Shown one piece after another: positions 13,901 through 58,589 of a stretch of DNA of 64,000 nucleotides. This DNA comes from an uncultured Gammaproteobacteria bacterium (lineage in GTDB: Bacteria; Patescibacteriota; Patescibacteriia; S139-126), in assembly GCA_964493305.1 (NCBI GenBank), contig CAZBLW010000002.1, forward strand, positions 258,521 to 322,520, read 5' to 3'. A program made the position numbers and the translations under genes. The notes under the pieces were generated by a model, which saw nothing but the letters and a program-made list of their open reading frames with translations, searched no databases and was not told where the DNA came from. How positions within the stretch are numbered: the stretch's first letter is position 1; each line of letters opens with the position of its first letter.

Positions 13901-14377
13901 CAAAATGGTTTTTGGTTGGGCTATGTATCTTCTAAGTTTAATGTGAATTTATTTAATGGCGCCTTAAACGCCGCTACAACTTCTTATGTAATTTCAGGTA
14001 CTGATTGGTATTATGTAGTTGGTACATTTGGTTATGATGGTGCAACTAAGTATTTACGTCTTTATGTAAATGGATTACTGCAAGATTCGGTTGCTTTATC
14101 AACCAATAATATTAATTATGAAAGCGCTGATTATAGAAGTTGTATAAATGCTTATGGTGATTGTAGTGGTGGTTTTGGTCAGCATACTATTGATGAAGTT
14201 AGGTTATCAAATGTCACTCGGAGTGCTGATTGGATTAAGTTTTCTTATTGTAATATGAATGATAGTTGTTTGGATTATACCCAAAGTGAAGCATTTGGTG
14301 ATAGTACTGCTAGTAGCGGAGGGTCTAGTAAAGTGAAAGGCGGGATACAGATTAAAGGTGGAATTAGGTTTAAGTAA
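7907..14377 (+). CDS. giant (2156 aa) membrane-anchored surface protein: four DUF2341-like plus LamG-like (Laminin_G_3 / concanavalin-A-like) units and a right-handed parallel beta-helix (pectate-lyase-like) segment
   Basis: N-terminal TM (YFLILIFIFLVLSGAIFAW). Recurrent W(W)NxxWxKRKKIxFDTTTSATT..L.DFP..VQLNS.RIDY....SGQDIRF.D.DG.ELPYEIE.W.E...ST.WVKVP.....T.D.IWMYYGN (DUF2341-like), each followed by a jelly-roll ending IDEVRIS...R...WI.F.YCN (LamG-like). Residues ~1600-1760: NNIFYDFRY..YNNTFYNCNEAIHG..ITNNIMQN...SDFRLKSSDS, typical of PbH1 beta-helix ends. Confidence 0.8.
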   Translation: MNKKFVQFIANKYFLILIFIFLVLSGAIFAWQIFTNNSQMSLQVSVPDNYQDKIVYSYQGQSFAIQPIAASSVNVKKKFFAEEYDYQDPYSKVDVKRLVSETGVKEDIVLREPGHPMQFKFQLDLGEFDYVKDLTGNITLTSKTDKLEEKDLQRKFFLPAPFFIDAAGKQSDTSAIDLRIDDKGIITYTLNESWLAQAQYPVVLDPSVELVILNVHSYPQTGDEWVVDFTTQGTADLIISPADQATIDDDRFVGLYCDGEERLPEIYKNDVIFYANWSCAGVGRVVHFTEYAGKHTLKFEFAGQVAYAYNSDWWNPSWTKRKKIFFDTTTSATTSNLIDFPLSVQLNSTRVDYTATQNSGQDIRFVDTDGTELPYEIESWNESGTSTLWVKVPQVNQNTTADYMWMYYGNSTAADNSTTTGVWDNNYKLVQHMDNTVTSTDSFVDSTKNYNHGTGFGGGSLAATSSGKINGAFNFDGTDDYVEVSNDSSLSGMNELSMSAWIYLDQLPTTVAHDVEILVKRHSTTPWNSYYFYIVGTACTNDNVMYVSLKNELEAAEYRCASSSLAVGQWYHVAVTWDGSDLHFYLNGSYDDEGATNFSGTSVFSSDGSFYINGEDSGPGRMDGKIDEVRISSIDRGVNWIKFEYCNQTDSCTTYGTEETDVWWNTKWLKRKKIMFDTTTSATTTSLVDFPVAVQLNSSRIDYAYTKPYGEDIRFIDSDGKTSLSYEIEKWDKTATSTFWVKVPTIDRNSNSDHIWLYYNNPNALDNSTTTGVWTNGFVGVWHMNNAYNASTTDSTKNALHGISRNLAATSTYMVGSALQFNGSTADVKLPISTLLNPEYTLTIEAWARTNSLSGEQSILGRTLSYELLAMRTWAPTGRPLAPIYYAYDTSMDLESATALTPGQFTYLAATYNGTTTGKAILYQDTIIKHTITTTTPESLYQNSANTYIGDSQWDDNSGFSGVIDEVRISDTDRTKSWINFTYCNIKETCNTYGKEQTYGWWDTRWQKRKPIYFDTTTSATTSDLANFTALVRLNSSRINYTYTQNSGQDIRFVDADGLTELPYEIENWNESGESIVWVKVPKIDKNSKTDHIWMYYDNPLASDNSTTTGTWNSNYVIVQHLQETTTGASDFKDSTSYGNDSVAVTFGGTGSNPDAVGKINGAIQFDGTDDTISFGDSDDFSATNGVTDRPISVSFWVKPDTFGAGGQDRIMQKYDSSGEWEIWNSDTGAVNFAFFDQTTYDNGIGRAVDFALTEGQWDYLTMTYNGNETNSGIKIFRNGVRIDDADYANGTYPGSSNTDSQFRMGWNYGSDYWDGFLDEVRIANIELDPNWITFEYCNMNDACASFGAEEAQAIKIYRSMGFNNTSPLASGSSTVELTISGFDATFSAGMPMRVGVGDAIQYDSDSNGSVDSIVFIHKRVSSTQYEIRTANGTSTPTAVTADKDWRIYRAYTTSDNAVSGVENTGIASALRNFDTWSLGDDLVTKNYQWNIALYADAVEVVTTTSLIDTSNWTTGPKNYLRFFTPVNKNEVGVSQRHNGRLTDTAYKILINVAGDYQDVYQQQANYIRIEGIQCEISSPTAYIGIHCINLNRSTGAAYISENIFKGESGVIPYQGGIKFYHSAPAGITAYIWNNIFYDFRYPSGTEAYGISINQADSIGYVYNNTFYNCNEAIHGRLLLIQITNNIMQNTNTCYSTWNGSNAYTDYNMCDNSNGSPGSHSLNNVTVSFVSSTASDFRLKSSDSVARDKGKDMSGDVNLPFNNDIENQTRQGPWDIGADEYVVTSLGTQGWWQSAWKNRMKITIDNSSQSETLTNFPLVVTLYSSRIDYTQTQNSGQDIRFVASDGTELPYEIEKWDEAATSTVWVKVPQINGGSNAGYIWMYYGNPDAADNQSPNDVWDTNYKFVHHLEESPDDTVAGHFDSTSNNATGTPYNFQTGGTGTTNATGKLDGADYFSVTTNNDYVTIPSLASQQLTASGTLEAWVKPDLTTGRIVTHGQQNGFWLGYVSSKFNVNLFNGALNAATTSYVISGTDWYYVVGTFGYDGATKYLRLYVNGLLQDSVALSTNNINYESADYRSCINAYGDCSGGFGQHTIDEVRLSNVTRSADWIKFSYCNMNDSCLDYTQSEAFGDSTASSGGSSKVKGGIQIKGGIRFK

Positions 14378-14465
14378 TTATAATGATTTAAGATTTAAGA
14401 ATAAAGATTTAAGAATTTACCCTTATTTAATTGCCTTGCACCTTAGACAGAAATTAAAAATAAAA

Positions 14466-14650
14466 TGTTTTACCTCTATTTTTTGTCAGTCCCGCGGACG
14501 CGGGATAGCAAAAACTGCCGACCAGCGCTTCCGTTCAGGTAAAATTGCCAACCGTTCGCGCGCCTCTCAAAATCTCTTACGCTTTAGTTGAGAGGCGTAA
14601 CCGCTCACTACTTGGCAATATTTACACTTCAGGAAGCGGAAGGTCGGAAA
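14466..14650. ncRNA. candidate structured RNA / conserved structured element, copy A
   Basis: Second copy at 44052-44250. Shared T-rich leader, GC hairpin, outer stem CCGACC...GGTCGG, conserved stem aattgccaa...ttggcaat, inner stem gcctctcaa...ttgagaggc. Confidence 0.35.
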
Positions 14651-14725
14651 GAAATTCAAAATAAAAATTATAAAATTAAAAAATTCATTAGTTATTAGTA
14701 ATTAGAAATTAGTAATTAAAATATT

Positions 14726-14814
14726 TGTCATTCCGTGCTTGACACGGAATCCAGAAACAAAAATAGATTCCTGCTCGAGTTTATCCCGCACTTGATGCGG
14801 GACAGGAATGACAA
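14726..14814. repeat. MITE-like element, full copy
   Basis: tgtcattccgtgcttgacacggaatccagaaacaaaaatagattcctgctcgagtttatcccgcacttgatgcgggacaggaatgacaa. Confidence 0.7.
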
Positions 14815-14897
14815 GGATAAAAGTTTAAAAATTCAGATTTATTTAAAAATTACAAAATTAAAAATTAAAAAATTCATTAGTTATTAGTAATTAAAAA

Positions 14898-15004
14898 ATG
14901 AAGTTTTCTTTTCCCCAACTAAATATATTAAAGTCCTTAAAACGAGTTCCAGGTAACAAGGAATATAATTGTCATTCCGAACTTGTTTCGGAATCTAAAA
15001 AATA
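14898..15004 (+). pseudogene. orphan duplicated 5' end (about 21 codons, out of frame) of the giant-protein gene family, interrupted by a half MITE
   Basis: atgaagttttcttttccccaactaaatatattaaagtccttaaaacga encodes MKFSFPQLNILKSLKR, homologous to the N-termini at 15005 (MKLKFSKLNIVKTLKR) and 20946 (MHFSFPQLNILNALKR). It is followed by ttgtcattccgaacttgtttcggaatc and a stop, then the real start at 15005. 15005 minus 14898 is not a multiple of 3. Confidence 0.5.
14970..15000. repeat. MITE half-element (first hairpin only)
   Basis: ttgtcattccgaacttgtttcggaatctaaaaaat. Confidence 0.6.
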
Positions 15005-20806: not shown

Positions 20807-20862
20807 AAAATGTTAATTATAAATTGTAAATTTTAAATTATAAATGAATTATAAAATTACAA

Positions 20863-20882
20863 CCTGCCTGCCGGCAGGCAGG
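20863..20882. repeat. perfect 20-bp palindrome cctgcctgccggcaggcagg in the intergenic region between two giant genes
   Basis: Read directly from the sequence. Related to the second hairpin of the MITE (gattcctgc...gcaggaatc). Confidence 0.6.
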
Positions 20883-20945
20883 AATTAAAAATTATAAAAT
20901 TAGTAATTCATTAGTTATTAGTAATTAGTCATTAGTAATTTATCC

Positions 20946-25990: not shown

Positions 25991-26401
25991 ATGACAGAAT
26001 TACTATATGAAGAGTTGAGTTATAAAATTAGAGGATGTTGTTTTACTATTTATAATACTCTTGGCTTTGGTCATAAAGAAGATATATATCAAAAAGCCTT
26101 AGAGATTGAATTAGCTAAACAAAAAGTTAGATATGAAGCACAAAAAAGTTTAGCTATATATTATGATGATAAAAAAGTTGGCAACTATAGACCAGATTTA
26201 ATTATTGATGATAAAATAATTATTGAAATTAAAGCAGTTGAGTTTATTCCAAAAAAGTTTGAACAACAGTTAATATATTATTTAAGGGGAATTAATTTCA
26301 AACTTGGATTTTTAGTAAATTTTGGAAGTTCAAAACTATATATTAAACGTCTTATTTGGTCGACAAATTATCAGCGTAAATCTGCCATTAATCCGTTGTA
26401 A
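25991..26401 (+). CDS. GxxExxY family protein (PD-(D/E)xK-like small protein)
   Basis: 136 aa. N-terminal LSYKIRGCCFTIYNTLGFGHKEDIYQKALEIEL carries the G-H-K-E-D-I-Y (GxxExxY) signature and the ALxxEL helix typical of TIGR04256-like proteins. Confidence 0.75.
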   Translation: MTELLYEELSYKIRGCCFTIYNTLGFGHKEDIYQKALEIELAKQKVRYEAQKSLAIYYDDKKVGNYRPDLIIDDKIIIEIKAVEFIPKKFEQQLIYYLRGINFKLGFLVNFGSSKLYIKRLIWSTNYQRKSAINPL

Positions 26402-28653: not shown

Positions 28654-28787
28654 AGAATTACGAATTAGGTATTACGAATTAAGAATAAATGAAAAATCCT
28701 TATAAATTAGTCATTTTTATCAGTAATTAGTTATTAGTAATTAGTCATTAATTAATATATTCCCCATTAATAAAATTAATCAAACAT

Positions 28788-40207: not shown

Positions 40208-40498
40208 CTAAAGGTAATCTGCTTGTAGTTCTTCTTTGATTTTTTGGATAATTTCCTTGAGAGTATATAATTTCATTTTAAAGAAAAGACTGGCTAAAGT
40301 TATTAGTATTAGGCAAATAATTATTTGCGAGACAATATTGGGATGAGGTTTTATTTGAATAATAACAATAGCGCTAATAGCAGCAAAGAAGGTAATGACT
40401 GATAAGGTCGCAAAAAAATAGTATCTCATAGTTATCCATTTTGTTATTGAATTTTTAAAGTAGATATATATTATAAGGAGGGTTTGTCCTTTTGTCAA
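40208..40498 (-). CDS. small two-TM membrane protein, hypothetical
   Basis: 96-aa ORF with hydrophobic helices (FFATLSVITFFAAISAIVII; IIICLILITLASLFF). Confidence 0.4.
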   Translation of the reverse strand: MTKGQTLLIIYIYFKNSITKWITMRYYFFATLSVITFFAAISAIVIIQIKPHPNIVSQIIICLILITLASLFFKMKLYTLKEIIQKIKEELQADYL

Positions 40499-40707
40499 TA
40501 GAAATTTTATCCAGGACGGGTTATTGAGAAAAAAATCAGATAATTATTTATTATCGTGATCTCAAATTTATGGTTAAACGGGTTATTTTGGATCCTCCGC
40601 GTAGAACCGCAAACGCCTTAGATGCGTTTTCTCAACCAAGATAATTGATCGTTTTTTGGGGTTGAGATACCCCTGCCAACTGTCCTGATAATTTTTAAAT
40701 TAATTCT

Positions 40708-40753: not shown

Positions 40754-40830
40754 TGGTCGGGGTGAGAGGACTTGAACCTCCGACCTCGTCGTCCCGAACG
40801 ACGCGCGCTAGCCAACTGCGCTACACCCCG
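40754..40830 (-). tRNA. tRNA-Pro (anticodon CGG), with encoded CCA
   Basis: Reverse complement CGGGGTG-TA-GCGC-AGTTGGCTA-GCGC-G-CGTCG-TTCGGGA-CGACG-AGGTC-GGAGG-TTCAAGT-CCTCT-CACCCCG-ACCA. Cloverleaf with a 7-bp acceptor, T-loop TTCAAGT, anticodon loop uuCGGga with G37. Confidence 0.85.
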
Positions 40831-40912
40831 TTGATTTTTAAAAATATTTTAATCCGCACTAGCCAGCCCCGGGCCTATGGTCCCCGGGCCTAATGGCCCG
40901 TTAGGGCCAGGC

Positions 40913-40927
40913 CTGCGCTACACCCCG
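40913..40927 (-). repeat. 15-nt duplicate of the tRNA-Pro 5' end (ctgcgctacaccccg), preceded by GC-rich hairpins (40853-40912)
   Basis: Exact 15-mer match to 40816-40830. The adjacent ccccgggcctatgg / ccccgggcctaatgg / ggcccgttagggcc form stems. It does not fold into a complete tRNA. Confidence 0.5.
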
Positions 40928-41046
40928 ATTAGACAATTATAAATTGTAAATTATAAATTGTAAATTATTAATTTATTTTAATTCTTAATTTATGATACTT
41001 TATTCCAATTTAGCCTTTCTTTTTTGTCAAATTTATGGTATAATAT

Positions 41047-43706: not shown

Positions 43707-43846
43707 GGGGATAGATTTGAGTAAGAAATAGGAAAGAATAATTACCAATTATTAATAACTAATTACTAAGCAATGATTAAATTTAAAAATTATCTAATTA
43801 GTAATTCATTAGTTATTAGTAATTAGAAATTAGTAATTAAAATATT

Positions 43847-43913
43847 TGTCATTCCGTGCTTGACACGGAATCTAAAAAATAAAAATGGATTCCTGCTTTC
43901 GCAGGAATGACAA
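43847..43913. repeat. MITE-like element, full copy
   Basis: tgtcattccgtgcttgacacggaatctaaaaaataaaaatggattcctgctttcgcaggaatgacaa. Confidence 0.7.
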
Positions 43914-44006
43914 TGATAAAAATTTAAAAATTTAGATTTATTTACAAATTTAAAAAATTTAAAATTGATTAGTTATTAGTAATTAGTCATTAGTAATTAA
44001 AACAGT

Positions 44007-44040
44007 TGTCATTCCTGATTTAGTCAGGAATCCAGAAACA
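44007..44040. repeat. MITE half-element
   Basis: tgtcattcctgatttagtcaggaatccagaaaca. Confidence 0.6.
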
Positions 44041-44051
44041 AAAATAAAAAT

Positions 44052-44250
44052 TTTATCTCTACTTTTTTGTTAACCTGCCTCGTCGGCAAGGCGGGCAAAA
44101 AAGTAACAAAAAATTGCGGCCAGTGCTTTGGTTCAGGCAAAATTGCCAATTCGCTCGTGTGTCTCTCAAAATCGCTAAACGCTTGAGTTGAGAGACTAAA
44201 TTCACTCGCTCCTTGGCAATATTTGCACTTCACAAATCAAATGGCCGAAT
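44052..44250. ncRNA. candidate structured RNA / conserved structured element, copy B
   Basis: Outer stem CGGCC...GGCCG. Inner stem gtctctcaa...ttgagagac, compensatory to copy A. The same aattgccaa...ttggcaat stem. Confidence 0.35.
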
Positions 44251-44647: not shown

Positions 44648-45030
44648 ATAAGTTATAGAATATTCTATACTTTATTGTATATTTTATACTTATTTTAGTC
44701 AAGATTTGTTACTTTTTTTTATAAAATTCGTATTTATGGTTAGGAGCGTTTAATATTTAAATCCCGTATTCTAAACATTATTTAATTTAATAATTAAATA
44801 ATTACTAATTCATTAGTAATTAATCATTAGTAATTAGTTATTATTCAGGGGCTATTTACATTTCCCAAACTATTAGCTAGTATAAGTTTATGCTAAATTT
44901 AGACTAATTTTCCCGAAAATTTATATAGTTTGTAGGGTTAATTAGTTTTTTTTATGGTTAATTTTATTTATTACTTGTAAATATTAAGCTTATTTAGTGT
45001 AATATATATTCCTTTTCTTCGTCTTATTAT

Positions 45031-46730: not shown

Positions 46731-46795
46731 TGTCATTCCCGCGTAGGCGGGAATCCAGAAACAAAAATAGATTCCTGCTTTCGCAGGAATGACAA
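46731..46795. repeat. MITE-like element, full copy
   Basis: tgtcattcccgcgtaggcgggaatccagaaacaaaaatagattcctgctttcgcaggaatgacaa. Confidence 0.7.
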
Positions 46796-47177
46796 GAATA
46801 AATGTTTAAAAATTTTAAATGTTTGAAATTTGTAGATTTAAGTCTACAGCTTTCAGACTTTTAAAGTCTGTGTCCCGCGCACGCGGGATAAAGTAGATCT
46901 TTGTTAGAACTTTGAATCATTTGGCCCTTCGTGTTATTTCACGTTTGGGGACTTTGGCGGAAGTGAACAAGCAGACGATTCCAGGTCAGCCTAGAAATAG
47001 GCTAGACAGGCTGCTTGTTCTAGACGGGTAGCCAGCGGAAAAATTTGTTTAGTTCGCTTGCACACCGCTTTTTGTCAAAGGTCGGACCGGCGTTATTGGT
47101 AACCAAGACCAGCCAGTTGGTTCTTTCGTTGCAATGAGTTCTAGCAAGACCTAATTATTAAAAAACACAAACACTGT

Positions 47178-50100
47178 ATGAAAAAGTTTTTGATCGGCAG
47201 TTTGACAGTCATGACCGTAGTTTGGGCCATGGGTTTGTCTGCTTTTGTAGCAACCCCAGCCTCAGCTGCAGTTGGTGATCTTGTTAAATCTGCTTCATCT
47301 AGCACAGTCTATGTAGTAAAGGCAGACGGTGTCACTATTTGTCAGTTCCCACATGCCAATGTTTACAAGTCATGGGGATACCCATCAAATTTCAGCACCG
47401 TTATGACTAAGGACCTCTCCAGCTACACTGTAGGATCTAACATCGAATTTAGAGATGCTTCCTTAGTGAAGGGAGATGGTCCAGCTGTATACCTCGTATA
47501 CAACAACATGAAGAGACCTATCATTTCTGATGTGGTCTTCTTGGGTTTAGGTTATGACTGGGATGATATTACCTGGTTATCCGATGCATTTTTAGCTGAT
47601 TACACCACTGGCGCTGTAGTTGATTCTTCAACTATGCACCCAGACGGTCAAATTGTTAAATATGCTGGTAGCCCAGCAGTTTATCTCATTGATAACGGTA
47701 TGAAGCGCCCGTTCGCTTCAGGTGCGGCTTTTGAAGCCAATCGTTATTCTTGGGGTGATATTATCACTATCCCTGATACCGAAACCTATCCAAATGGCTC
47801 AGCCATTTCTGGATATGAACAAGCTTTATCCTTACCAAATTGTATTGGTACATCAGCTGTTCCAGCTGGTAGTGGTTTGACCGTAGCTTTGTCTCCTTCA
47901 ACCCCAATGGCTGGCAGTATTATTACTGATTCTTCCAATGGTGGTCAGGCTTTAGCTGCTTTCACCACTGTTAACTTCACTGCCTCTTCAGACGGTGATG
48001 TTAAAGTAACCAATTTGAAATTCAAGAGAACAGGTGTATCATCTGATACTTCACTTGATAACATGTATCTCTATGATGGTAATACCAAACTAACTGATGG
48101 TGGTTCACTATCCAGTGGTATGGTTACCTTCAACAATGCTAATGGTTTATTCACAGTTCCAGCCGGCACTACCAAGTCCATTACTGTCAAAGGTGATGTG
48201 TCTACCACTGCTACCGCTGGTCAAACTATTGGTTTTGAATTATCCGGTTCTGCTTGGGTCACCACCAACGGTGCATCCGTCATGGGTAGTTTCCCAGCCA
48301 CTGGTAATTTAATGACCGTAGCTTCTGTGTCAGATTTGGCCAAAGTTGGTGTCGCTACAACTTCTGTAGCAACAACTGTTGATCCTGACTCCACTGATGT
48401 AGTGGTCTGGCAGGGTACAGTTTATACCACCAACCAAACTGTGGCTTTGCACTATGTCAAGTTTACTTCTTTGGGCAGTATTCAATATGATGACTTGAAA
48501 AACTTCAAGTTATATGATGGTGGCACTTTGGTTTCCTCAGTTGCCAGCATGACTTCTGACCGACAAGTAATGTTTGATTTAGGTAGCAGCCCAGTAAATT
48601 TCACAGTTGGTCAATCCAAGACTTTCAAAGTTATGGCTGATGTAGTCAAGGGTTCTACCCGCACTTATAATTTCACTATCCAAGAAGCTACTGATGTAGT
48701 TGCCAAGGATACCAATTATAATGTGTATGTTACTTCCAAAGTAACTAGCTCTTATGCCAATTGGGTAGTCTTGAAGATGAATTCTGATACTACTATCAAT
48801 TCCGGTGATTTAACTATTACCAAAGCCAATACCTCACCAACTGGCAATGTGGCTCAAAATGGTACCAATGTAAAAGTTGCTACCTTTGAACTAAAAGCTA
48901 CTGGTGAAGATATGAAGGTAAAAGATTTGAACGTCAAGGCTGATTTCTCTTCAGGTTATGAAGGTGGTCTTGACAATGGTAAAGTATTCTTCAATGGCGT
49001 CCAAGTTGGTTCTACCAAGGACTTAACTGAAGCTGGTACCATCAACTTTACCTTTGGTTCAAGTTTGATCGTTACAGCCGGTACTACTGGTGTATTAGAT
49101 ATCTATGCTGACATTCGTTCAGCTACAGGTACCACAATCACCGATGGTTCTGACGTTACTGTTTCTTTGGAGGCAGGTAGTTCCAATGTCCAAAAGATGT
49201 CATCTCTTGGCTATACTAGTGCTCCAAGTGCTTCAGTTCCAGCTAATAGCTTAAATGTAACTGCTGGATCATTAAGTATTTCTGAATATTCGGCTTATAC
49301 TAACCAAACTATGGTTGCTGGTAGCAATAACGTCAAAGTTGGTAGTGCTGTCTTTACAGCTGGTTCAGCTGAAGGCGTCAACGTGACTTCTATCACTGTT
49401 GATTTGTCAGCTGCTGAAGCTGGTAGTTCCACCAACATGTATTTGATGAAGGATGGTGTACAAATTGGTGTTACCAAGCCAACCTTGTCAACTTCCAACA
49501 TTTTCTCAGTCAATTTCAGCATTCCAGCTTCTGGCAGTCAGATTATTGATCTATATGCTAGTTTGAAGAGTAATGCTGGTATGGGAACATGGGAAGCCAC
49601 CATGTCAGCTGAAGGTGTCGGTTTAGTTACCAACAATACCGTAACTGCCTCATCTCAAGCTCTACAAGATATCACTATTGGTACTGGTTCATTAACTGCT
49701 ACAGCTGATGCTTCCAAACCAGATGCTGATATTATCTTAGCTGGCACAACTAAAGTCTTCATGAATGCTGTTAAGTTTACTGCTCAATATGAAGACTTCA
49801 ATGTCCAAGAATTAACCTTTATTGCTGATTCCGGCATTCAACCACATACTGGTGCTGTCACTTTAGAATATCCAGTACAAGGTGGTGGTACAGGAACTGC
49901 AATTGGTTATATGGCTTCAGGTGCAGTTACCTTCACTAATCTAAACATGTATGTAGCTAGAGACACTTCAGCCGTGTTGAAAGTTTATATTGATGTTCCA
50001 ACATTATCTTCCGGTACCATCTCAGGTGGTACAGGTGGTATTGATTGGGATGTTTCTGCCACTTATAAGCATGTTGGACTTGGTTCTGGTTTAACTGGAA

Positions 50101-51139: not shown

Positions 51140-51943
51140 ATGAACAACCAACCAGACAATATTCAAACTAATCAGCCGGTGAGTGAAAATAAAAACCAAA
51201 ACCGTATTTGGTATTTGCTGATAATTATCGTAGTTTTGGCAATAGTTTCTTGGTTAGTTTATAACAACACCAAAGATAAAACCCCAACAGTCAGTGAAGA
51301 GCCAACCAATGGACAAGTATTGGTGGGTGGGCAAGATTTGTCACAATATTTCAAAAACGAAGACAAAAAACTATCTCCCGATGTATTACCACCAGAGGAA
51401 ATAAAGGCCAGATTTGAAGCTGATTTGGCAGCAGCGCGTCAGTATATAATTGATGAAGAGGCTAAAGGAGATGGCAATGAGTATCAGGGGTATATGGGAG
51501 TAGCCAATTCTTTACGTGCTTTGGGTGATTATCCTGCAGCTGAGCAAGCTTATTTTGATATGATAGCTAAATATCCGGATGATGAACTTATTTATCACAA
51601 CTTGGGTGTTTTGTATGAAGATATGCATCAGTATTTGGAGGCAGCTAAGGCCTATACAACTTCAATTGCCAAAAAACCAGAAGAGCTTATTGCTTATCTG
51701 AAACTAGCAGATCTTTATGTTAAACATTCAAGTCAGTCTGCCAAAGCCAAAGAAGTTTATCTCAAAGCCTTGGAAGCAACCAACAATCATCCGGAAATGT
51801 TGAAAGCTTATGCTAGTTATTTAGAAAATGATGAAAAAAATTTGCCTGAAGCTTTACTGTATTGGCAAGAAGTGTTGAAAGTAAATCCCGATAATCAAGC
51901 GGTGAAGGAGAGAGTGGAAGAGTTGGAAAAAAAGTTGAATTAA
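51140..51943 (+). CDS. TPR-repeat protein with N-terminal TM
   Basis: TM WYLLIIIVVLAIVSWLVY. TPR-like helical repeats (ANSLRALGDYPAAEQAYFDMIAKYPDDELIYHNLGVLYEDMHQYLEAAKAY...). Confidence 0.6.
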   Translation: MNNQPDNIQTNQPVSENKNQNRIWYLLIIIVVLAIVSWLVYNNTKDKTPTVSEEPTNGQVLVGGQDLSQYFKNEDKKLSPDVLPPEEIKARFEADLAAARQYIIDEEAKGDGNEYQGYMGVANSLRALGDYPAAEQAYFDMIAKYPDDELIYHNLGVLYEDMHQYLEAAKAYTTSIAKKPEELIAYLKLADLYVKHSSQSAKAKEVYLKALEATNNHPEMLKAYASYLENDEKNLPEALLYWQEVLKVNPDNQAVKERVEELEKKLN

Positions 51944-52415
51944 TTTTAAATTATAAATTATAAATTTTAAATCAATTTTTTAATTTTTAAATCAAAATAT
52001 ATGAGAGGAGAGAGTCATATTTTTGACCTTGAAGAAAGGACAGCTAAATTTGGCGAAGATGTATTGAAATTTTTAAAAGAAATAAAAGTAACAGTTAAAA
52101 ATCAGTCAATTATTAATCAACTTATAAAGTCAGCTACTTCCATTGGCGCCAATTATATGGAGGCAACAGGTGCAGAGTCAAAAAAAGACTTTAAACACAA
52201 AATTGGTATATGCAAAAAAGAAACCAGAGAAACAAAGCATTGGCTAAGGATGATTGCAATTTTCCAACCTGATAGCAAACCCCAAATTAAAACACTCTGG
52301 CAGGAAGCACATGAACTTATTTTAATATTTTCTAAGATAATCAGAACTTGTAAAAATTAAATAATTTATAATTAAGTTTTCATTTATAATTTAAAATTTA
52401 TAATTTATAATTTAA
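51937..52415 (+). repeat. ~480-bp direct repeat, copy 1 (carries the four-helix-bundle gene plus ATAAATT-tract flanks)
   Basis: Essentially identical to 54607-55085 including the ORF and both AT-rich flanks. The two copies bracket the 52422-54614 gene. Confidence 0.85.
52001..52360 (+). CDS. four-helix-bundle protein (TIGR02436 / 23S-rRNA-intervening-sequence protein family), copy 1
   Basis: 119 aa. SIGANYMEATGAESKKDFKHKIGICKKETRETKHWLRM matches the S-I-x-AN-I-A-EG...E..YWL signature of the family. Confidence 0.8.
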   Translation: MRGESHIFDLEERTAKFGEDVLKFLKEIKVTVKNQSIINQLIKSATSIGANYMEATGAESKKDFKHKIGICKKETRETKHWLRMIAIFQPDSKPQIKTLWQEAHELILIFSKIIRTCKN

Positions 52416-52421
52416 AACCCA

Positions 52422-54614
52422 ATGTCCCAAAATACCTTAAAACGAATTATTCAATCAGGACTAGCTGCAGTGCTGTTTGTACCAATATTAATTAGCGGAA
52501 AATTTTTGTTTCCTTATATCCATCTCAAAAATGCCTCATTTCGAGTGATTGTGACAGTACTTCTGGTGCTTGCGATTTGGTATTTGTGGCGACAAGGCGA
52601 GATTTATGGACGGAAAAATTATGTACTGTATGCATTTACGGGTATTTTTTTGGTAGAAATTATTGCTGGTATTTTTGGGCTAAATCCTTATAACAGTTTT
52701 TGGAGTAATTATGAGCGGATGGATGGGATTGTGCTGTTTTTCCATCTACTGCTTTATTTGTGGTTGTTGATACAATTTTTTCAAACCAAAGATGAGTGGT
52801 TATGGTTATTGCGTTCATCACTGGTAGTAGCTCTGATTTTATCGATTTATGGACTGGCCCAACGAGCAGGGGTAAGTAATGCTTGGATTTTGCCCAATGA
52901 CGCTCCTCGGATTGCTTCTACTATAGGTAACCCAGCTTATTTTGGTGGGTATTTACTGTTTCATGTATTTTTTTCGGGTATTTTACTTTATTTAGACCGT
53001 GTCAGATGGCGACAGGTGATTTATGCTTTGGGGGTAATATTTTTTACCTATATGATGTATGCCACTGGAACCCGCGGTCCTTTTTTGGGTTTTGTGGTGG
53101 GACTGGCTGTCATGGGGGCAATGTATTTTAAACATGCTGGTCAAAAACTAAAAATTGGCATAGCTATTGGTCTACTACTCATACCTTTGTCTGGAATATT
53201 TTTGTATACACAAAGAAACTCTGAGTGGTTGAAAAATTATTCTACTTTTCATCGTATTGCCAATATCAACTTGAAAGATTTGACTACCATTGATCGTATC
53301 AATACCTATGTGACTTCCTGGCATGCTTATACTGACCGGCCATTGTTTGGCTATGGACCAGAAAATTATCGTTATGGTTTCAATAAATATTACAATCCGG
53401 ATTTACATGAACAATGGTTTGACCGAGCGCACAATGTAATTTTTGATTATCTAAATTTAGGCGGACCCCTGGCATTGCTATTTTATCTGTCACTACTTGG
53501 AGCAGCAGTGTATTATCTTTGGCAGGCAAGAGGAGATGATTATTTTTTAAGTGTTTTGCTAATCAGTTTAGTATCAGCTTATTTTTTCCAAAATTTATTT
53601 GTCTTTGATTCTTTAAACACTTATTTGCCGCTTTTAGTAACTCTAGCTATGTCAGCTTGGCTTTATTTGCGCAATCAAAAGCATAGTTGGCAATTGTCTA
53701 ATAGTGCCCGAGCGTGGCAAATGCCACTAGTTGCAGCTAGTATAATTTTTGTTCTACTTAGTAATTATTTTATTGTTATCAAACCAGCGCAAGCCAATCT
53801 TATATCAATTGAAGCTTTTCGCTACACCCAAGCTGATCCCGCTAAATCTTTGGAACTTTTCGAGCAAGCAATCGATATGAATACTTATGGCAGTAGGGAA
53901 ATCATGTTACAACTTAATAATTTTGCTTCTGCAATAGTGCGTGATCAAAATCAAACTCAGGAATTACGGCAAAATGTTTTTAATACCAATCGGCGTTATG
54001 CCTTGGCGCATCTAGAAAAAGATCCTGGTGATATCCAATTTCGCATGTTGCTGGCAAATACTTATTTGAATTACTCGTCTATAGATAGTAGTTATTTACA
54101 AAAAACCGTTGATTTGTTGGAACCACATATTGCTGACTCACCGGATAGGTTGGAGTTGTATTTTACTTTGGTGCAGGCCTATCTGGGGATGAACAATTTA
54201 GACAAAGCCGGACTTTATGCCAAGACTGCTTTTTCCAAAACCCAAAGTAAGCCCTCAGTGTATCTCAATTTGATGAATTACTATGCGGCAGCCAAAGATG
54301 GTGATAATTTTATGAAAACCGCTGATGAGTATGAAACCAAATTTGATTTAGGACTGGCTGATTGGCAGCAGTTGGCTGAGTTTTATTACAACGTTGGATT
54401 GTATGATCGGGCTGAGCGTATTTTAAGAGATAAAATAATTGCGCAAGATCCTAACAATTTACAAAATTATGCAGGTCTAGTGGCGGTTCTGCGTGGACAA
54501 GGTAGATTGGATGAGGCGATTGCCTTATTGGAGCAGTTAAAACAAGCCTTTCCAGCAGCTGCCAAAGATATAGAAAGTTATCAGAAACAGCTGGAAACAG
54601 AGATGGGTAATTAA
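52422..54614 (+). CDS. O-antigen-ligase-like (Wzy_C) polytopic membrane protein with a C-terminal TPR domain
   Basis: About 12 TM helices, with ATGTRGPFLGFVVGLAVMG in the Wzy_C-like periplasmic loop region. C-terminal ~280 aa are TPR-like (LANTYLNY..., AEFYYNVGLYDRAERIL, LVAVLRGQGRLDEAIALL). Confidence 0.65.
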   Translation: MSQNTLKRIIQSGLAAVLFVPILISGKFLFPYIHLKNASFRVIVTVLLVLAIWYLWRQGEIYGRKNYVLYAFTGIFLVEIIAGIFGLNPYNSFWSNYERMDGIVLFFHLLLYLWLLIQFFQTKDEWLWLLRSSLVVALILSIYGLAQRAGVSNAWILPNDAPRIASTIGNPAYFGGYLLFHVFFSGILLYLDRVRWRQVIYALGVIFFTYMMYATGTRGPFLGFVVGLAVMGAMYFKHAGQKLKIGIAIGLLLIPLSGIFLYTQRNSEWLKNYSTFHRIANINLKDLTTIDRINTYVTSWHAYTDRPLFGYGPENYRYGFNKYYNPDLHEQWFDRAHNVIFDYLNLGGPLALLFYLSLLGAAVYYLWQARGDDYFLSVLLISLVSAYFFQNLFVFDSLNTYLPLLVTLAMSAWLYLRNQKHSWQLSNSARAWQMPLVAASIIFVLLSNYFIVIKPAQANLISIEAFRYTQADPAKSLELFEQAIDMNTYGSREIMLQLNNFASAIVRDQNQTQELRQNVFNTNRRYALAHLEKDPGDIQFRMLLANTYLNYSSIDSSYLQKTVDLLEPHIADSPDRLELYFTLVQAYLGMNNLDKAGLYAKTAFSKTQSKPSVYLNLMNYYAAAKDGDNFMKTADEYETKFDLGLADWQQLAEFYYNVGLYDRAERILRDKIIAQDPNNLQNYAGLVAVLRGQGRLDEAIALLEQLKQAFPAAAKDIESYQKQLETEMGN

Positions 54615-55085
54615 TTTTAAATTATAAATTATAAATTTTAAATCAATTTTTTAATTTTTAAATCAAAATATATGAGAGGAGAGAGTCATATTTTTGACCT
54701 TGAAGAAAGGACAGCTAAATTTGGCGAAGATGTATTGAAATTTTTAAAAGAAATAAAAGTAACAGTTAAAAATCAGTCAATTATTAATCAACTTATAAAG
54801 TCAGCTACTTCCATTGGCGCCAATTATATGGAGGCAACAGGTGCAGAGTCAAAAAAAGACTTTAAACACAAAATTGGTATATGCAAAAAAGAAACCAGAG
54901 AAACAAAGCATTGGCTAAGGATGATTGCAATTTTCCAACCTGATAGCAAACCCCAAATTAAAACACTCTGGCAGGAAGCACATGAACTTATTTTAATATT
55001 TTCTAAGATAATCAGAACTTGTAAAAATTAAATAATTTATAATTAAGTTTTCATTTATAATTTACAATTTATAATTTATAATTAA
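54607..55085 (+). repeat. ~480-bp direct repeat, copy 2
   Basis: Identical to 51937-52415. Confidence 0.85.
54672..55031 (+). CDS. four-helix-bundle protein, copy 2 (identical to 52001-52360)
   Basis: 100% identical ORF. Confidence 0.8.
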   Translation: MRGESHIFDLEERTAKFGEDVLKFLKEIKVTVKNQSIINQLIKSATSIGANYMEATGAESKKDFKHKIGICKKETRETKHWLRMIAIFQPDSKPQIKTLWQEAHELILIFSKIIRTCKN

Positions 55086-55258: not shown

Positions 55259-55347
55259 TTGTCATTCCGCACTTGATGCGGAATCTAAAAACAAAAACAA
55301 AAATATTATTTATTTTTTTGGATTTCTGACTAAATCAGGAATGACAA
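55259..55347. repeat. MITE-like element, full copy (second half near-identical to the 2353-2433 copy)
   Basis: tgtcattccgcacttgatgcggaatctaaaaacaaaaacaaaaatattatttatttttttggatttctgactaaatcaggaatgacaa. Confidence 0.7.
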
Positions 55348-58301: not shown

Positions 58302-58589
58302 ATGAAAGAGTATTTTGTATATATTATGGCCAGTAATAAAAATGGCACATTGTATATAGGTGTAACTTCAGATTTGAAGAAAAGGATATATGAACATAAA
58401 AATGATTTAGTACCAGGTTTTACCAATAGATATAAAGTACACAATTTGGTTTATTTTGAAGTAATCAATGACATCAGAGAAGCATTACTTAGAGAAAAAA
58501 GATTAAAAAAATGGAAAAGAGAATGGAAGATTAAGTTAATTGAAAAAAATAACCCAAGTTGGAAAGATTTATATGAAGGTTTATTTTAG
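58302..58589 (+). CDS. GIY-YIG nuclease-superfamily small protein (UPF0213/YhbQ-like)
   Basis: YFVYIMASNKNGTLYIGVTSDLKKRIYEHKN (G-T-L-Y-I-G ... R...H). 95 aa. Confidence 0.8.
   Translation: MKEYFVYIMASNKNGTLYIGVTSDLKKRIYEHKNDLVPGFTNRYKVHNLVYFEVINDIREALLREKRLKKWKREWKIKLIEKNNPSWKDLYEGLF

Follow-up and report, generated by a model that had tools for sequence, protein, structure and literature searches.

The closest described counterparts of the element analyzed here are dispersed hairpin repeats of bacterial genomes. The bcr1 repeat of the Bacillus cereus group, about 155 bp long, is transcribed, has short flanking direct repeats and a distribution that is not conserved between relatives, and is maintained in its folded structure by compensatory changes (PMC3184786). 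REPINs are REP doublets that form hairpins and are mobilized by RAYT transposases, and compensatory changes have been documented in these elements as well (PMC3116915). MITEs of the ERIC, Correia (NEMIS) and RUP types are often co-transcribed with their neighbors and can affect the fate of the mRNA; in particular, co-transcribed repeats of the ERIC type alter mRNA decay (PMC3184786). A hairpin of another kind, the single-strand origin ssoA, contains the RSB motif (TTATGCCGAGAAAATTT) in its stem and the CS-6 motif (TAGCGT) in its terminal loop (PMC4598088).

In the stretch of 64,000 nucleotides analyzed here (hereafter, the window), comparison of the copies shows a discrete, dispersed intergenic repeat of about 180 nt that belongs to a narrow lineage of Patescibacteria and comes in two old subtypes. 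Patescibacteria have small, streamlined genomes in which, to our knowledge, very few non-coding or repetitive elements have been described, and no Patescibacteria repeat or RNA of this kind was found in the literature.

Copies of the element and their parts

The two copies in the window, A (14466–14649) and B (44051–44249), are homologous, with a mean column identity of 81% in the MAFFT alignment; when copy A was compared with the window using blastn, copy B was matched at 78% over 129 nt (E 7e-23) and there was no other significant match. The positions and the end-to-end alignment given in an earlier, sequence-only reading of this DNA are thereby borne out, as is its placement of a gene stop some 90 nt before copy A (the stop is at 14377, 89 nt before 14466). 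That reading described a two-copy element; however, one related genome contains at least four more loci. Five more copies were recovered there, for a total of seven sequences from six independent loci in two genomes. Copies L006 and L018 come from the CAZINS01 MAG, and L022, L038 and L030 (the latter with two copies) from assembly JAANMV01; L030b is the same as L018, and L038 is the same as L006 except for one SNP. The copies of the relative were confirmed by blastn and by a covariance model, R1 (152–165 bits).

A split-pattern scan of public genome contigs returned 20 loci, of which two were real, both from one MAG, and a 20-mer scan of metagenomes returned 30 loci with three real ones, all from JAANMV01. 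Only chance matches came from two viral scans, and blastn against phages and plasmids left the element unmatched. The collection scans required exact matches, so the copy counts, two per 64-kb window and at least four in the relative (~45 kb read), are a lower bound that misses diverged members. With filters off, R1 did not find a third copy in the window (the next best match has an E of 0.07), nor any copy in ~150 kb of other retrieved DNA. When the whole window was searched with Rfam 15, tRNA-Pro alone passed the gathering threshold, and at E ≤ 10 the matches over the element at both loci were at chance level (13–18 bits), in agreement with the original failure to assign it to a known RNA family.

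Named protein homologs of the neighboring genes belong to Patescibacteria (Komeilibacteria, Kuenenbacteria and Parcubacteria), and the gene content of the window fits this group, with LamG/DUF2341 giant proteins, DUF5667, pyruvate:ferredoxin oxidoreductase and WxL/dockerin proteins. The CAZINS01 MAG, the source of L006 and L018, is recorded as ‘uncultured Gammaproteobacteria’. It is, however, syntenic with the window in its genes, and all named homologs of the neighboring genes of the window come from Patescibacteria; on this gene evidence, the label is probably wrong.

The unit consists of four parts, namely a 12-nt leader (TTTTAYCTCTAY), an A/U palindrome denoted hp1 (CUACUUUUUUG-loop-CAAAAAAGUAG), an A-tract linker and an imperfect rod hairpin of about 130 nt. 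In the window, these parts and the repeats that flank copy A are as follows.

14449–14465, + strand: left direct repeat of copy A (AGAAATTAAAAATAAAA), 16/17 identical to 14650–14666; abuts the conserved unit exactly
14468–14489, + strand: leader of copy A (TTTTACCTCTAT) and 5′ arm of hp1 (U-run, GUCAG); conserved leader and U-run
14490–14505, unstranded: GC palindrome of copy A (TCCCGCGGACGCGGGA), a secondary insertion missing from L006, L018 and L022
14506–14517, unstranded: A-tract linker of copy A (UAGCAAAAACUG); a U-tract directly after the hairpin on the − strand
14518–14647, unstranded: long rod hairpin of copy A, with five helices, conserved internal loops and a variable terminal loop (R1, 160.8 bits)
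14650–14666, + strand: right direct repeat of copy A (AGAAATTCAAAATAAAA), 16/17 identical to the left repeat
44051–44073, + strand: leader of copy B (TTTTATCTCTAC) and 5′ arm of hp1 (CTACTTTTTTG)
44074–44095, unstranded: GC palindrome of copy B (CCTGCCTCGTCGGCAAGGCGGG) inside the hp1 loop; missing from L006, L022 and the positional ortholog L018
44096–44116, unstranded: 3′ arm of hp1 (CAAAAAAGTAAC) and A-tract linker (AAAAAATTG) of copy B
44117–44247, unstranded: long rod hairpin of copy B (R1, 152.5 bits)

The leader (TTTTAYYTCTAY) and the U-run are kept in most copies, with a degenerate leader in L022, and the linker follows the pattern CAAAAA(A)YUG in 7/7 copies. The pairing of hp1 is maintained, L022 being one U and one A shorter, one in each arm; in copy A, the GC palindrome replaces the 3′ arm of hp1. 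A small ORF was considered and rejected, the ATG-led 25-codon frame of copy A being kept in no other copy.

The GC hairpin, initially thought to be common to both copies, differs in sequence between them (TCCCGCGGACGCGGGA in A, CCTGCCTCGTCGGCAAGGCGGG in B) and is not a feature of the family: L006, L018 and L022 lack it, and L030a carries a third such hairpin (CCTGCCTGCCGGTAGGCAGG) placed after hp1, not within it. Hairpins that differ, are missing or are displaced among the copies point to three independent insertions of small GC palindromes into the A/U-rich part of the element. The 19-nt stretch with the palindrome of copy A is 94.7% identical to 46872–46890, and by this likeness the hairpin belongs to a separate small palindrome family. 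Small GC palindromes of the types TCCCGCG-N3-CGCGGGA and CCTGCC(T)GCCGG-N-GGCAGG occur at variable insertion points, in the window at 14490–14505, 44074–44095, 46872–46890 and about 20860–20880, and also in L030 (4222–4241) and L018 (2743–2758); the three independent insertions in the focal element lie within or beside hp1.

Site occupancy, selection and surroundings

The element is not a fixed gene: at three orthologous sites that differ in occupancy (insertion polymorphism), it was gained or lost as a whole. Site A, between LamG giant genes, is filled in the window and empty in L068, where both flanks are recognizably orthologous. At site B, the window and L018/L030 carry the element, and L053 (whose htrA is 83% identical to that of the window), L055 and L056 have an empty site. 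Conversely, the site at tRNA-Pro(CGG) is filled in L030, where the element starts 8 nt after the CCA end inside an extra segment of ~370 nt, and is empty in the window, where the tRNA terminator follows straight on. The L053, L055, L056 and L068 loci were obtained via htrA-like and LamG proteins, and the element is missing from all four. The genes next to the copies share no theme (a LamG giant gene, tRNA-Pro, NUDIX, TspO, htrA/HTH).

Homology among the copies starts at the leader and ends at the foot of the hairpin. Neither end of the unit (TTTTAYCTCTAC... and ...GGYCGRAA) is the reverse complement of the other, so that terminal inverted repeats are lacking and the inverted repeat of the unit is internal, within the rod hairpin. 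The 17-nt direct repeats of copy A are the best ungapped match between its flanks, with p ~ 0.001 against 3000 shuffles; the corresponding value for copy B is p ~ 0.06, and the flanks of the other four copies gave no significant match. Copies within a genome are 73–88% identical and thus old, with no sign of a recent burst. The paralogs L018 and L006 (88% identical) are closer to each other than the positional orthologs L018 and copy B (82%), which implies duplication or conversion after speciation. Among the scanned window ORFs of at least 80 aa, no transposase domain was detected with Pfam, and the 64-kb window contains no RAYT gene.

The positional ortholog of copy B (L018 2517–2680, L030 7475–7638) is defined by synteny, with the same 262-aa, htrA-like, HTH_17 and ECF-sigma neighbors, and is 83.4% identical to it over 169 nt (about 82–84% otherwise). 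Between the window and the relative, which are distant from each other, the neighboring genes (htrA, bCASP, sigma and others) are 71–92% identical in amino acid and 74–81% in nucleotide sequence, their four-fold degenerate sites are saturated (38–54% identity), and the flanking intergenic DNA at site B does not align. An identity of 82–84% in the face of saturated neutral sites, together with invariant loops and bulges, indicates purifying selection on both sequence and pairing, and such selection is what these comparisons suggest most firmly about the function of the element. The non-palindromic leader and linker are conserved, too.

Several other features of the window are repeated or conserved. 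An AT-rich intergenic module, AATTCATTAGTTATTAGTAATTAG(A/T)NATTAGTAATT, recurs at 14682–14720, 14870–14900, 20895–20941, 28715–28757, 43803–43840, 43963–44000 and 44790–44850, often directly upstream of a start codon; it lies 40–110 nt downstream of the hairpin element at 4/6 loci and is gained or lost with it at two sites. It may be a promoter/UP-like element or part of a larger mobile unit. A dispersed palindromic family is formed by modules of the architecture GTCATTCC-hairpin-GGAATC(CAGAAACAAAAATA)GATTCC-hairpin-GGAATGAC at 14726–14812, 43848–43915, 44007–44033, 46731–46795 and 55262–55290, one of which contains a nested hairpin-in-hairpin (14770–14810); of the Rfam families, FtrB (38 bits) and WsnRNA46 (34 bits) match these modules below threshold.

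Two non-coding blocks are conserved in the relatives. The first, 46893–47165 on the + strand, upstream of the ATG at 47178, consists of ~270 nt of higher GC content and is found in the same place in every relative, with identities of 89% (L018), 80% (L053), 87.6% (L055) and 75% (L056) against saturated neutral sites. Its RNAalifold structure for four species comprises 89 pairs with a long closing helix and 11 double-changed pairs, and no Rfam match was found at E ≤ 1; it is a candidate clade-wide structured RNA or the candidate 5′ leader of a 1165-aa protein without Pfam domains. The second, 40530–40700 on the − strand, between the tRNA-Pro terminator and a 96-aa ORF (40208–40498), is conserved over about 150–230 nt, with identities of 88% in L030 (locally about 96%), 84% in L053, 83% in L055 and 70% in L056; it has no Rfam match and could serve a small membrane protein as its leader or riboswitch, or could be an sRNA. 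A second tRNA-Pro 5′ half (CGGGGTGTAGCGCAG...TGGCTAGTGCG) is located at 40865–40935 (− strand), immediately upstream of the intact tRNA-Pro (40757–40830), and is interrupted by a GC-rich hairpin of ~48 nt; it is 92% identical in L030 and is called by neither ARAGORN nor Rfam. The window further includes an exact 300-nt duplication (51938–52237 and 54609–54908), which covers the start of two 119-aa genes of the 23S_rRNA_IVP family that flank an O-antigen-ligase/TPR gene, and small PD-(D/E)XK_3 (25991–26401) and GIY-YIG (58302–58589) genes.

Conserved fold, covariation and strand

On the + strand, copies A and B fold with minimum free energies of −73 and −66 kcal/mol (z −6.3 and −6.7, respectively; 0/200 shuffles as good for each), and for the rod hairpin of either copy z is between −4 and −7. 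The nested stems described earlier were all recovered, including the outer stem (CCGACC/GGTCGG in A, CGGCC/GGCCG in B), the invariant stem AATTGCCAA/TTGGCAAT present in both copies and the switch from C-G to U-A within the CUCUCAA stem. For the seven sequences, RNAalifold predicts a single rod of five helices and 42 pairs. Both sides changed with pairing kept in 12/42 pairs on the + strand and 13/42 on the − strand, the paired cells amounting to 96.3% and 98.0%, respectively; 0/500 shuffles matched the observed covariation, and in a slid control, with the 3′ partner moved by 1–3 columns, 28–45% of the cells were paired and 0–2 pairs covaried.

Most of the compensatory changes separate the two subtypes, both of which are present in both genomes. 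In type 1 (copy A, L022 and L030a), the outer stem CCGACC/GGUCGG is followed by GCUKCC/GGMAGC; in type 2 (copy B, L006/L038 and L018), CGGCC/GGCCG is followed by GCUUUG/CAAAGC. Pairs that covary within a subtype are found in helices 3, 4 and 5. In helices 1 and 2, 6/12 pairs changed while the internal loops are invariant; helices 3 and 5, along with the internal loops, are nearly invariant, and the central helix 4 has five pairs, three of them double-changed, that are 94–100% paired. Mismatched loops and bulges are the same in all seven copies, and variation, in sequence as well as in length, is greatest in the terminal loop. In the internal loops, the two arms read alike from 5′ to 3′, as UUCA/UUCA and CGCUC/CGCUC on the + strand or UGAA/UGAA and GAGCG/GAGCG on the − strand. 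A K-turn at the UGAA loop was rejected for want of a 3-nt bulge; on the − strand, the invariant UGAA/UGAA loop could form tandem G-A pairs.

The conserved fold and the compensatory changes are thus real, but the further step from covariation to a functional RNA, taken in the sequence-only reading, is unproven, because mobile DNA hairpins such as REPINs (PMC3116915) and bcr1 (PMC3184786) covary as well, so that covariation alone does not identify an RNA gene.

The strand assumed in that reading may also be wrong, given that the rod folds better on the − (bottom) strand in 7/7 copies, by 3–8 kcal/mol, with an alignment energy of −57.8 kcal/mol versus −52.0 kcal/mol on the + strand. About six A-C/C-A mismatch cells of the + strand turn into G-U on the − strand, which has about 5–6 G-U cells compared with one on the + strand. 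In addition, a U5–6 tract lies 2–3 nt past the stem on the − strand in 7/7 copies (at least five U within 8 nt), versus a T-rich tract on the other side of the stem (+ strand) at 1/6 loci; the − strand consensus GGYCG(G)-CA(A/G)-UUUUU(U)G, present in 7/7 copies, is terminator-like, a GC-closed stem followed by a U-tract. Together, these features incline us slightly toward the bottom strand as the functional one, and the inclination is slight because the counts are small and the copies are related.

The gene context does not settle the strand. Read in the + orientation, copy A, L038 and L030a each come after a gene or tRNA of the same direction, with no terminator between; at site B, the element lies behind the terminator of htrA itself, and in L022 it is antisense. 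In the − orientation, no other terminator-like structure comes between the HTH_17 gene of site B and the hairpin with its U-tract in either species, and this is the only gene that could be terminated (1/5 independent sites); at copy A, L038, L022 and L030a, a terminator role on the − strand fails, there being no co-oriented gene without a terminator of its own. No conserved promoter at a fixed distance was found on either side of the element: the TTGACA within hp1 lacks a −10, and the GC insertions disrupt its spacing, the conserved TAYTTT hexamer of the leader has no consistent −35, and in the downstream flanks no −10 occurs at a fixed distance. An ECF sigma gene is located 0.8–1 kb downstream of the element at two sites, a sample too small for more than coincidence to be claimed.

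Competing explanations and comparison with known systems

Asymmetric ends that delimit a discrete block, gain and loss at orthologous sites, and selected pairing with invariant symmetric loops are, taken together, best matched by dispersed hairpin repeats. By analogy with these, we tentatively favor, at slightly under an even chance, an element that is, or was until recently, a non-autonomous duplicating hairpin of the REPIN, bcr1 or ERIC kind, recognized by a protein encoded in trans. The hairpin would form in single-stranded nucleic acid and would be bound there by the putative protein, with the invariant helices and symmetric internal loops (UUCA/UUCA and CGCUC/CGCUC; UGAA/UGAA on the − strand) as putative contact sites; the outer helices would need only to pair, which would explain their covariation. 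Bottom-strand transcription of a copy would yield a very stable hairpin with a U-tract behind it, which would terminate or shield transcripts, as has been described for other repeats transcribed with their neighbors; we take this to be a secondary effect and not the reason for the existence of the element. The intergenic DNA of the window is full of other small palindromic modules, some of them nested, as would suit a mobile element. Against mobility, the copies are few and old, the flank repeats are significant for copy A only, the unit lacks terminal inverted repeats and the scanned window ORFs encode no transposase; the occupancy pattern would arise just as well if an ancestral locus for a functional RNA had been deleted in particular lineages, and the conservation of the loops also fits a protein-binding sRNA.

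The strongest of the alternatives, although in our view unlikely, is a paralogous family of small RNA genes, trans-acting or protein-sequestering, most likely on the bottom strand, with each copy transcribed separately up to an end at the hairpin and U-tract, and with losses in some lineages. The strong selection on sequence and pairing speaks for it, as do the better fold of the − strand with its additional G-U pairs and the U-tract after the stem in 7/7 copies, the possible tandem G-A pairs of the invariant UGAA/UGAA loop, the retention of both subtypes in both genomes and the positional orthology of copy B across two species. However, such genes would be expected neither to lack a conserved promoter at a fixed distance nor to lose homology exactly at the hairpin foot; the leader and hp1 would lie beyond the terminator and yet are conserved, syntenic sites are empty in three to four near relatives, no single-stranded ‘seed’ is conserved (the terminal loop being the most variable part), and the direct repeats of copy A are left unexplained. 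A more specific proposal, which we consider quite unlikely, is a new class of stand-alone structured ncRNA of Patescibacteria, read from the bottom strand, ending in its own U-tract and binding a dimeric protein through its symmetric loops; if true, this RNA might have a regulatory role or serve an unrecognized mobile or defense system as its RNA partner.

It is improbable that the element acts in cis on a neighboring gene, as a terminator or as a hairpin that stabilizes or processes 3′ ends. ERIC and Correia-type repeats do affect mRNA stability (PMC3184786), and here the − strand structure is the first terminator-like one after HTH_17 at site B in both species, while on the + strand a co-oriented gene or tRNA precedes the element without an intervening terminator at copy A, L038 and L030a. 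The orientation relative to neighbors is nevertheless mixed, an upstream co-oriented gene without its own terminator exists on the − strand at only 1/5 independent sites, htrA and tRNA-Pro use ordinary short intrinsic terminators in the same loci, and a 130-nt hairpin with conserved loops far exceeds the needs of termination.

Still less credible, and very improbable, is a palindrome without function, with the complementarity of its arms maintained by template switching or by conversion within the hairpin. Template switching can generate and preserve hairpins and mimic compensatory substitutions (PMC8794818), and symmetric mismatched loops with the same 5′-to-3′ sequence on both arms are what a short inversion of one arm would leave. 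This process, however, does not account for the 82–84% identity that persists where neutral sites are saturated, nor for the conservation of the non-palindromic leader and linker, and conversion would erase the mismatched loops and bulges that are invariant in the seven copies. The least probable explanation of all, a hairpin that binds RNA polymerase as a 6S-like RNA or an ssoA-like single-strand initiation site, could draw on the rod shape with its partly open center, on TAGCG[A/C], close to the CS-6 motif TAGCGT, in the − strand terminal loop of 4/6 distinct copies and on a weak TTGCCA-N17/18-CAAAAT match inside copies A and B, but the CS-6-like match is post hoc and would arise by chance in a few percent of cases, the relatives do not keep the −10-like hexamer, the central region pairs and covaries, Rfam gives no 6S match at E ≤ 10, and the element is multi-copy and patchy, with no RSB motif and no Rep or plasmid context. 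Integron attC sites, DGR TR/VR, retrons, type I toxin-antitoxin systems and omega/bridge RNAs were rejected because their core motifs are absent and there is no nearby partner gene, and because the differences between copies are not adenine-specific.

With a conservation above that of the surrounding protein-coding genes, clean covariation and invariant loops, the element has, on sequence grounds, a putative specific binding partner, which could be a transposase, a nuclease or a regulator. If mobile, it would be the first structured hairpin repeat described for this radiation and a handle on genome rearrangement; if an sRNA, it would be a new family. On either reading, it illustrates that telling RNA genes from selected DNA hairpins takes more than covariation. 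The reach of the finding is that of a narrow family seen in two species.

In comparison with ssoA, a CS-6-like TAGCG[A/C] lies in the − strand loop of 4/6 distinct copies; an RSB, a Rep gene and a plasmid context are lacking here. Like 6S RNA, the element is a rod-like hairpin of about 140–185 nt with an irregular center. Some bacteria have two 6S RNA paralogs. Unlike 6S RNA, the element has a center that is paired and covaries, with no large open bubble, it has no Rfam match, and it occupies no fixed housekeeping locus, being missing at syntenic sites in L053, L055, L056 and L068 and at tRNA-Pro of the window.

The resemblance to ERIC, Correia (NEMIS) and RUP MITEs lies in their being intergenic, long imperfect hairpins of 100–170 bp (PMC3184786); the copies of these MITEs are many and near-identical, with terminal inverted repeats and with TA or short target duplications, whereas the element has asymmetric ends and diverged copies. 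REPINs differ in being mobilized by RAYT, which is absent from the window, and in copy number, with tens to hundreds of copies per genome compared with two per 64 kb and three to four scanned loci in the relative (a lower bound) for the element; the element also has an extra asymmetric leader and A/U hairpin, and its arms each hold no more than a weak, AT-rich self-complement (GGCAAAATTGCC) in place of a GC-rich REP. What it has in common with REPINs is a long hairpin of two inverted arms with conserved arm cores and compensatory changes elsewhere, the presence of both subtypes in both genomes, which suggests long persistence, and insertion into or next to other repeats.

From bcr1, with its tens of copies and two-stem-loop cruciform, the element differs in sequence, to which it bears no similarity, in its few old copies, in its architecture of one long rod plus a small A/U hairpin, and in being known from sequence alone. 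The two are alike as intergenic repeats of similar size and patchy distribution with compensatory changes, the flanking direct repeats being found here at copy A only. The family is new, and the kind of element is already known.
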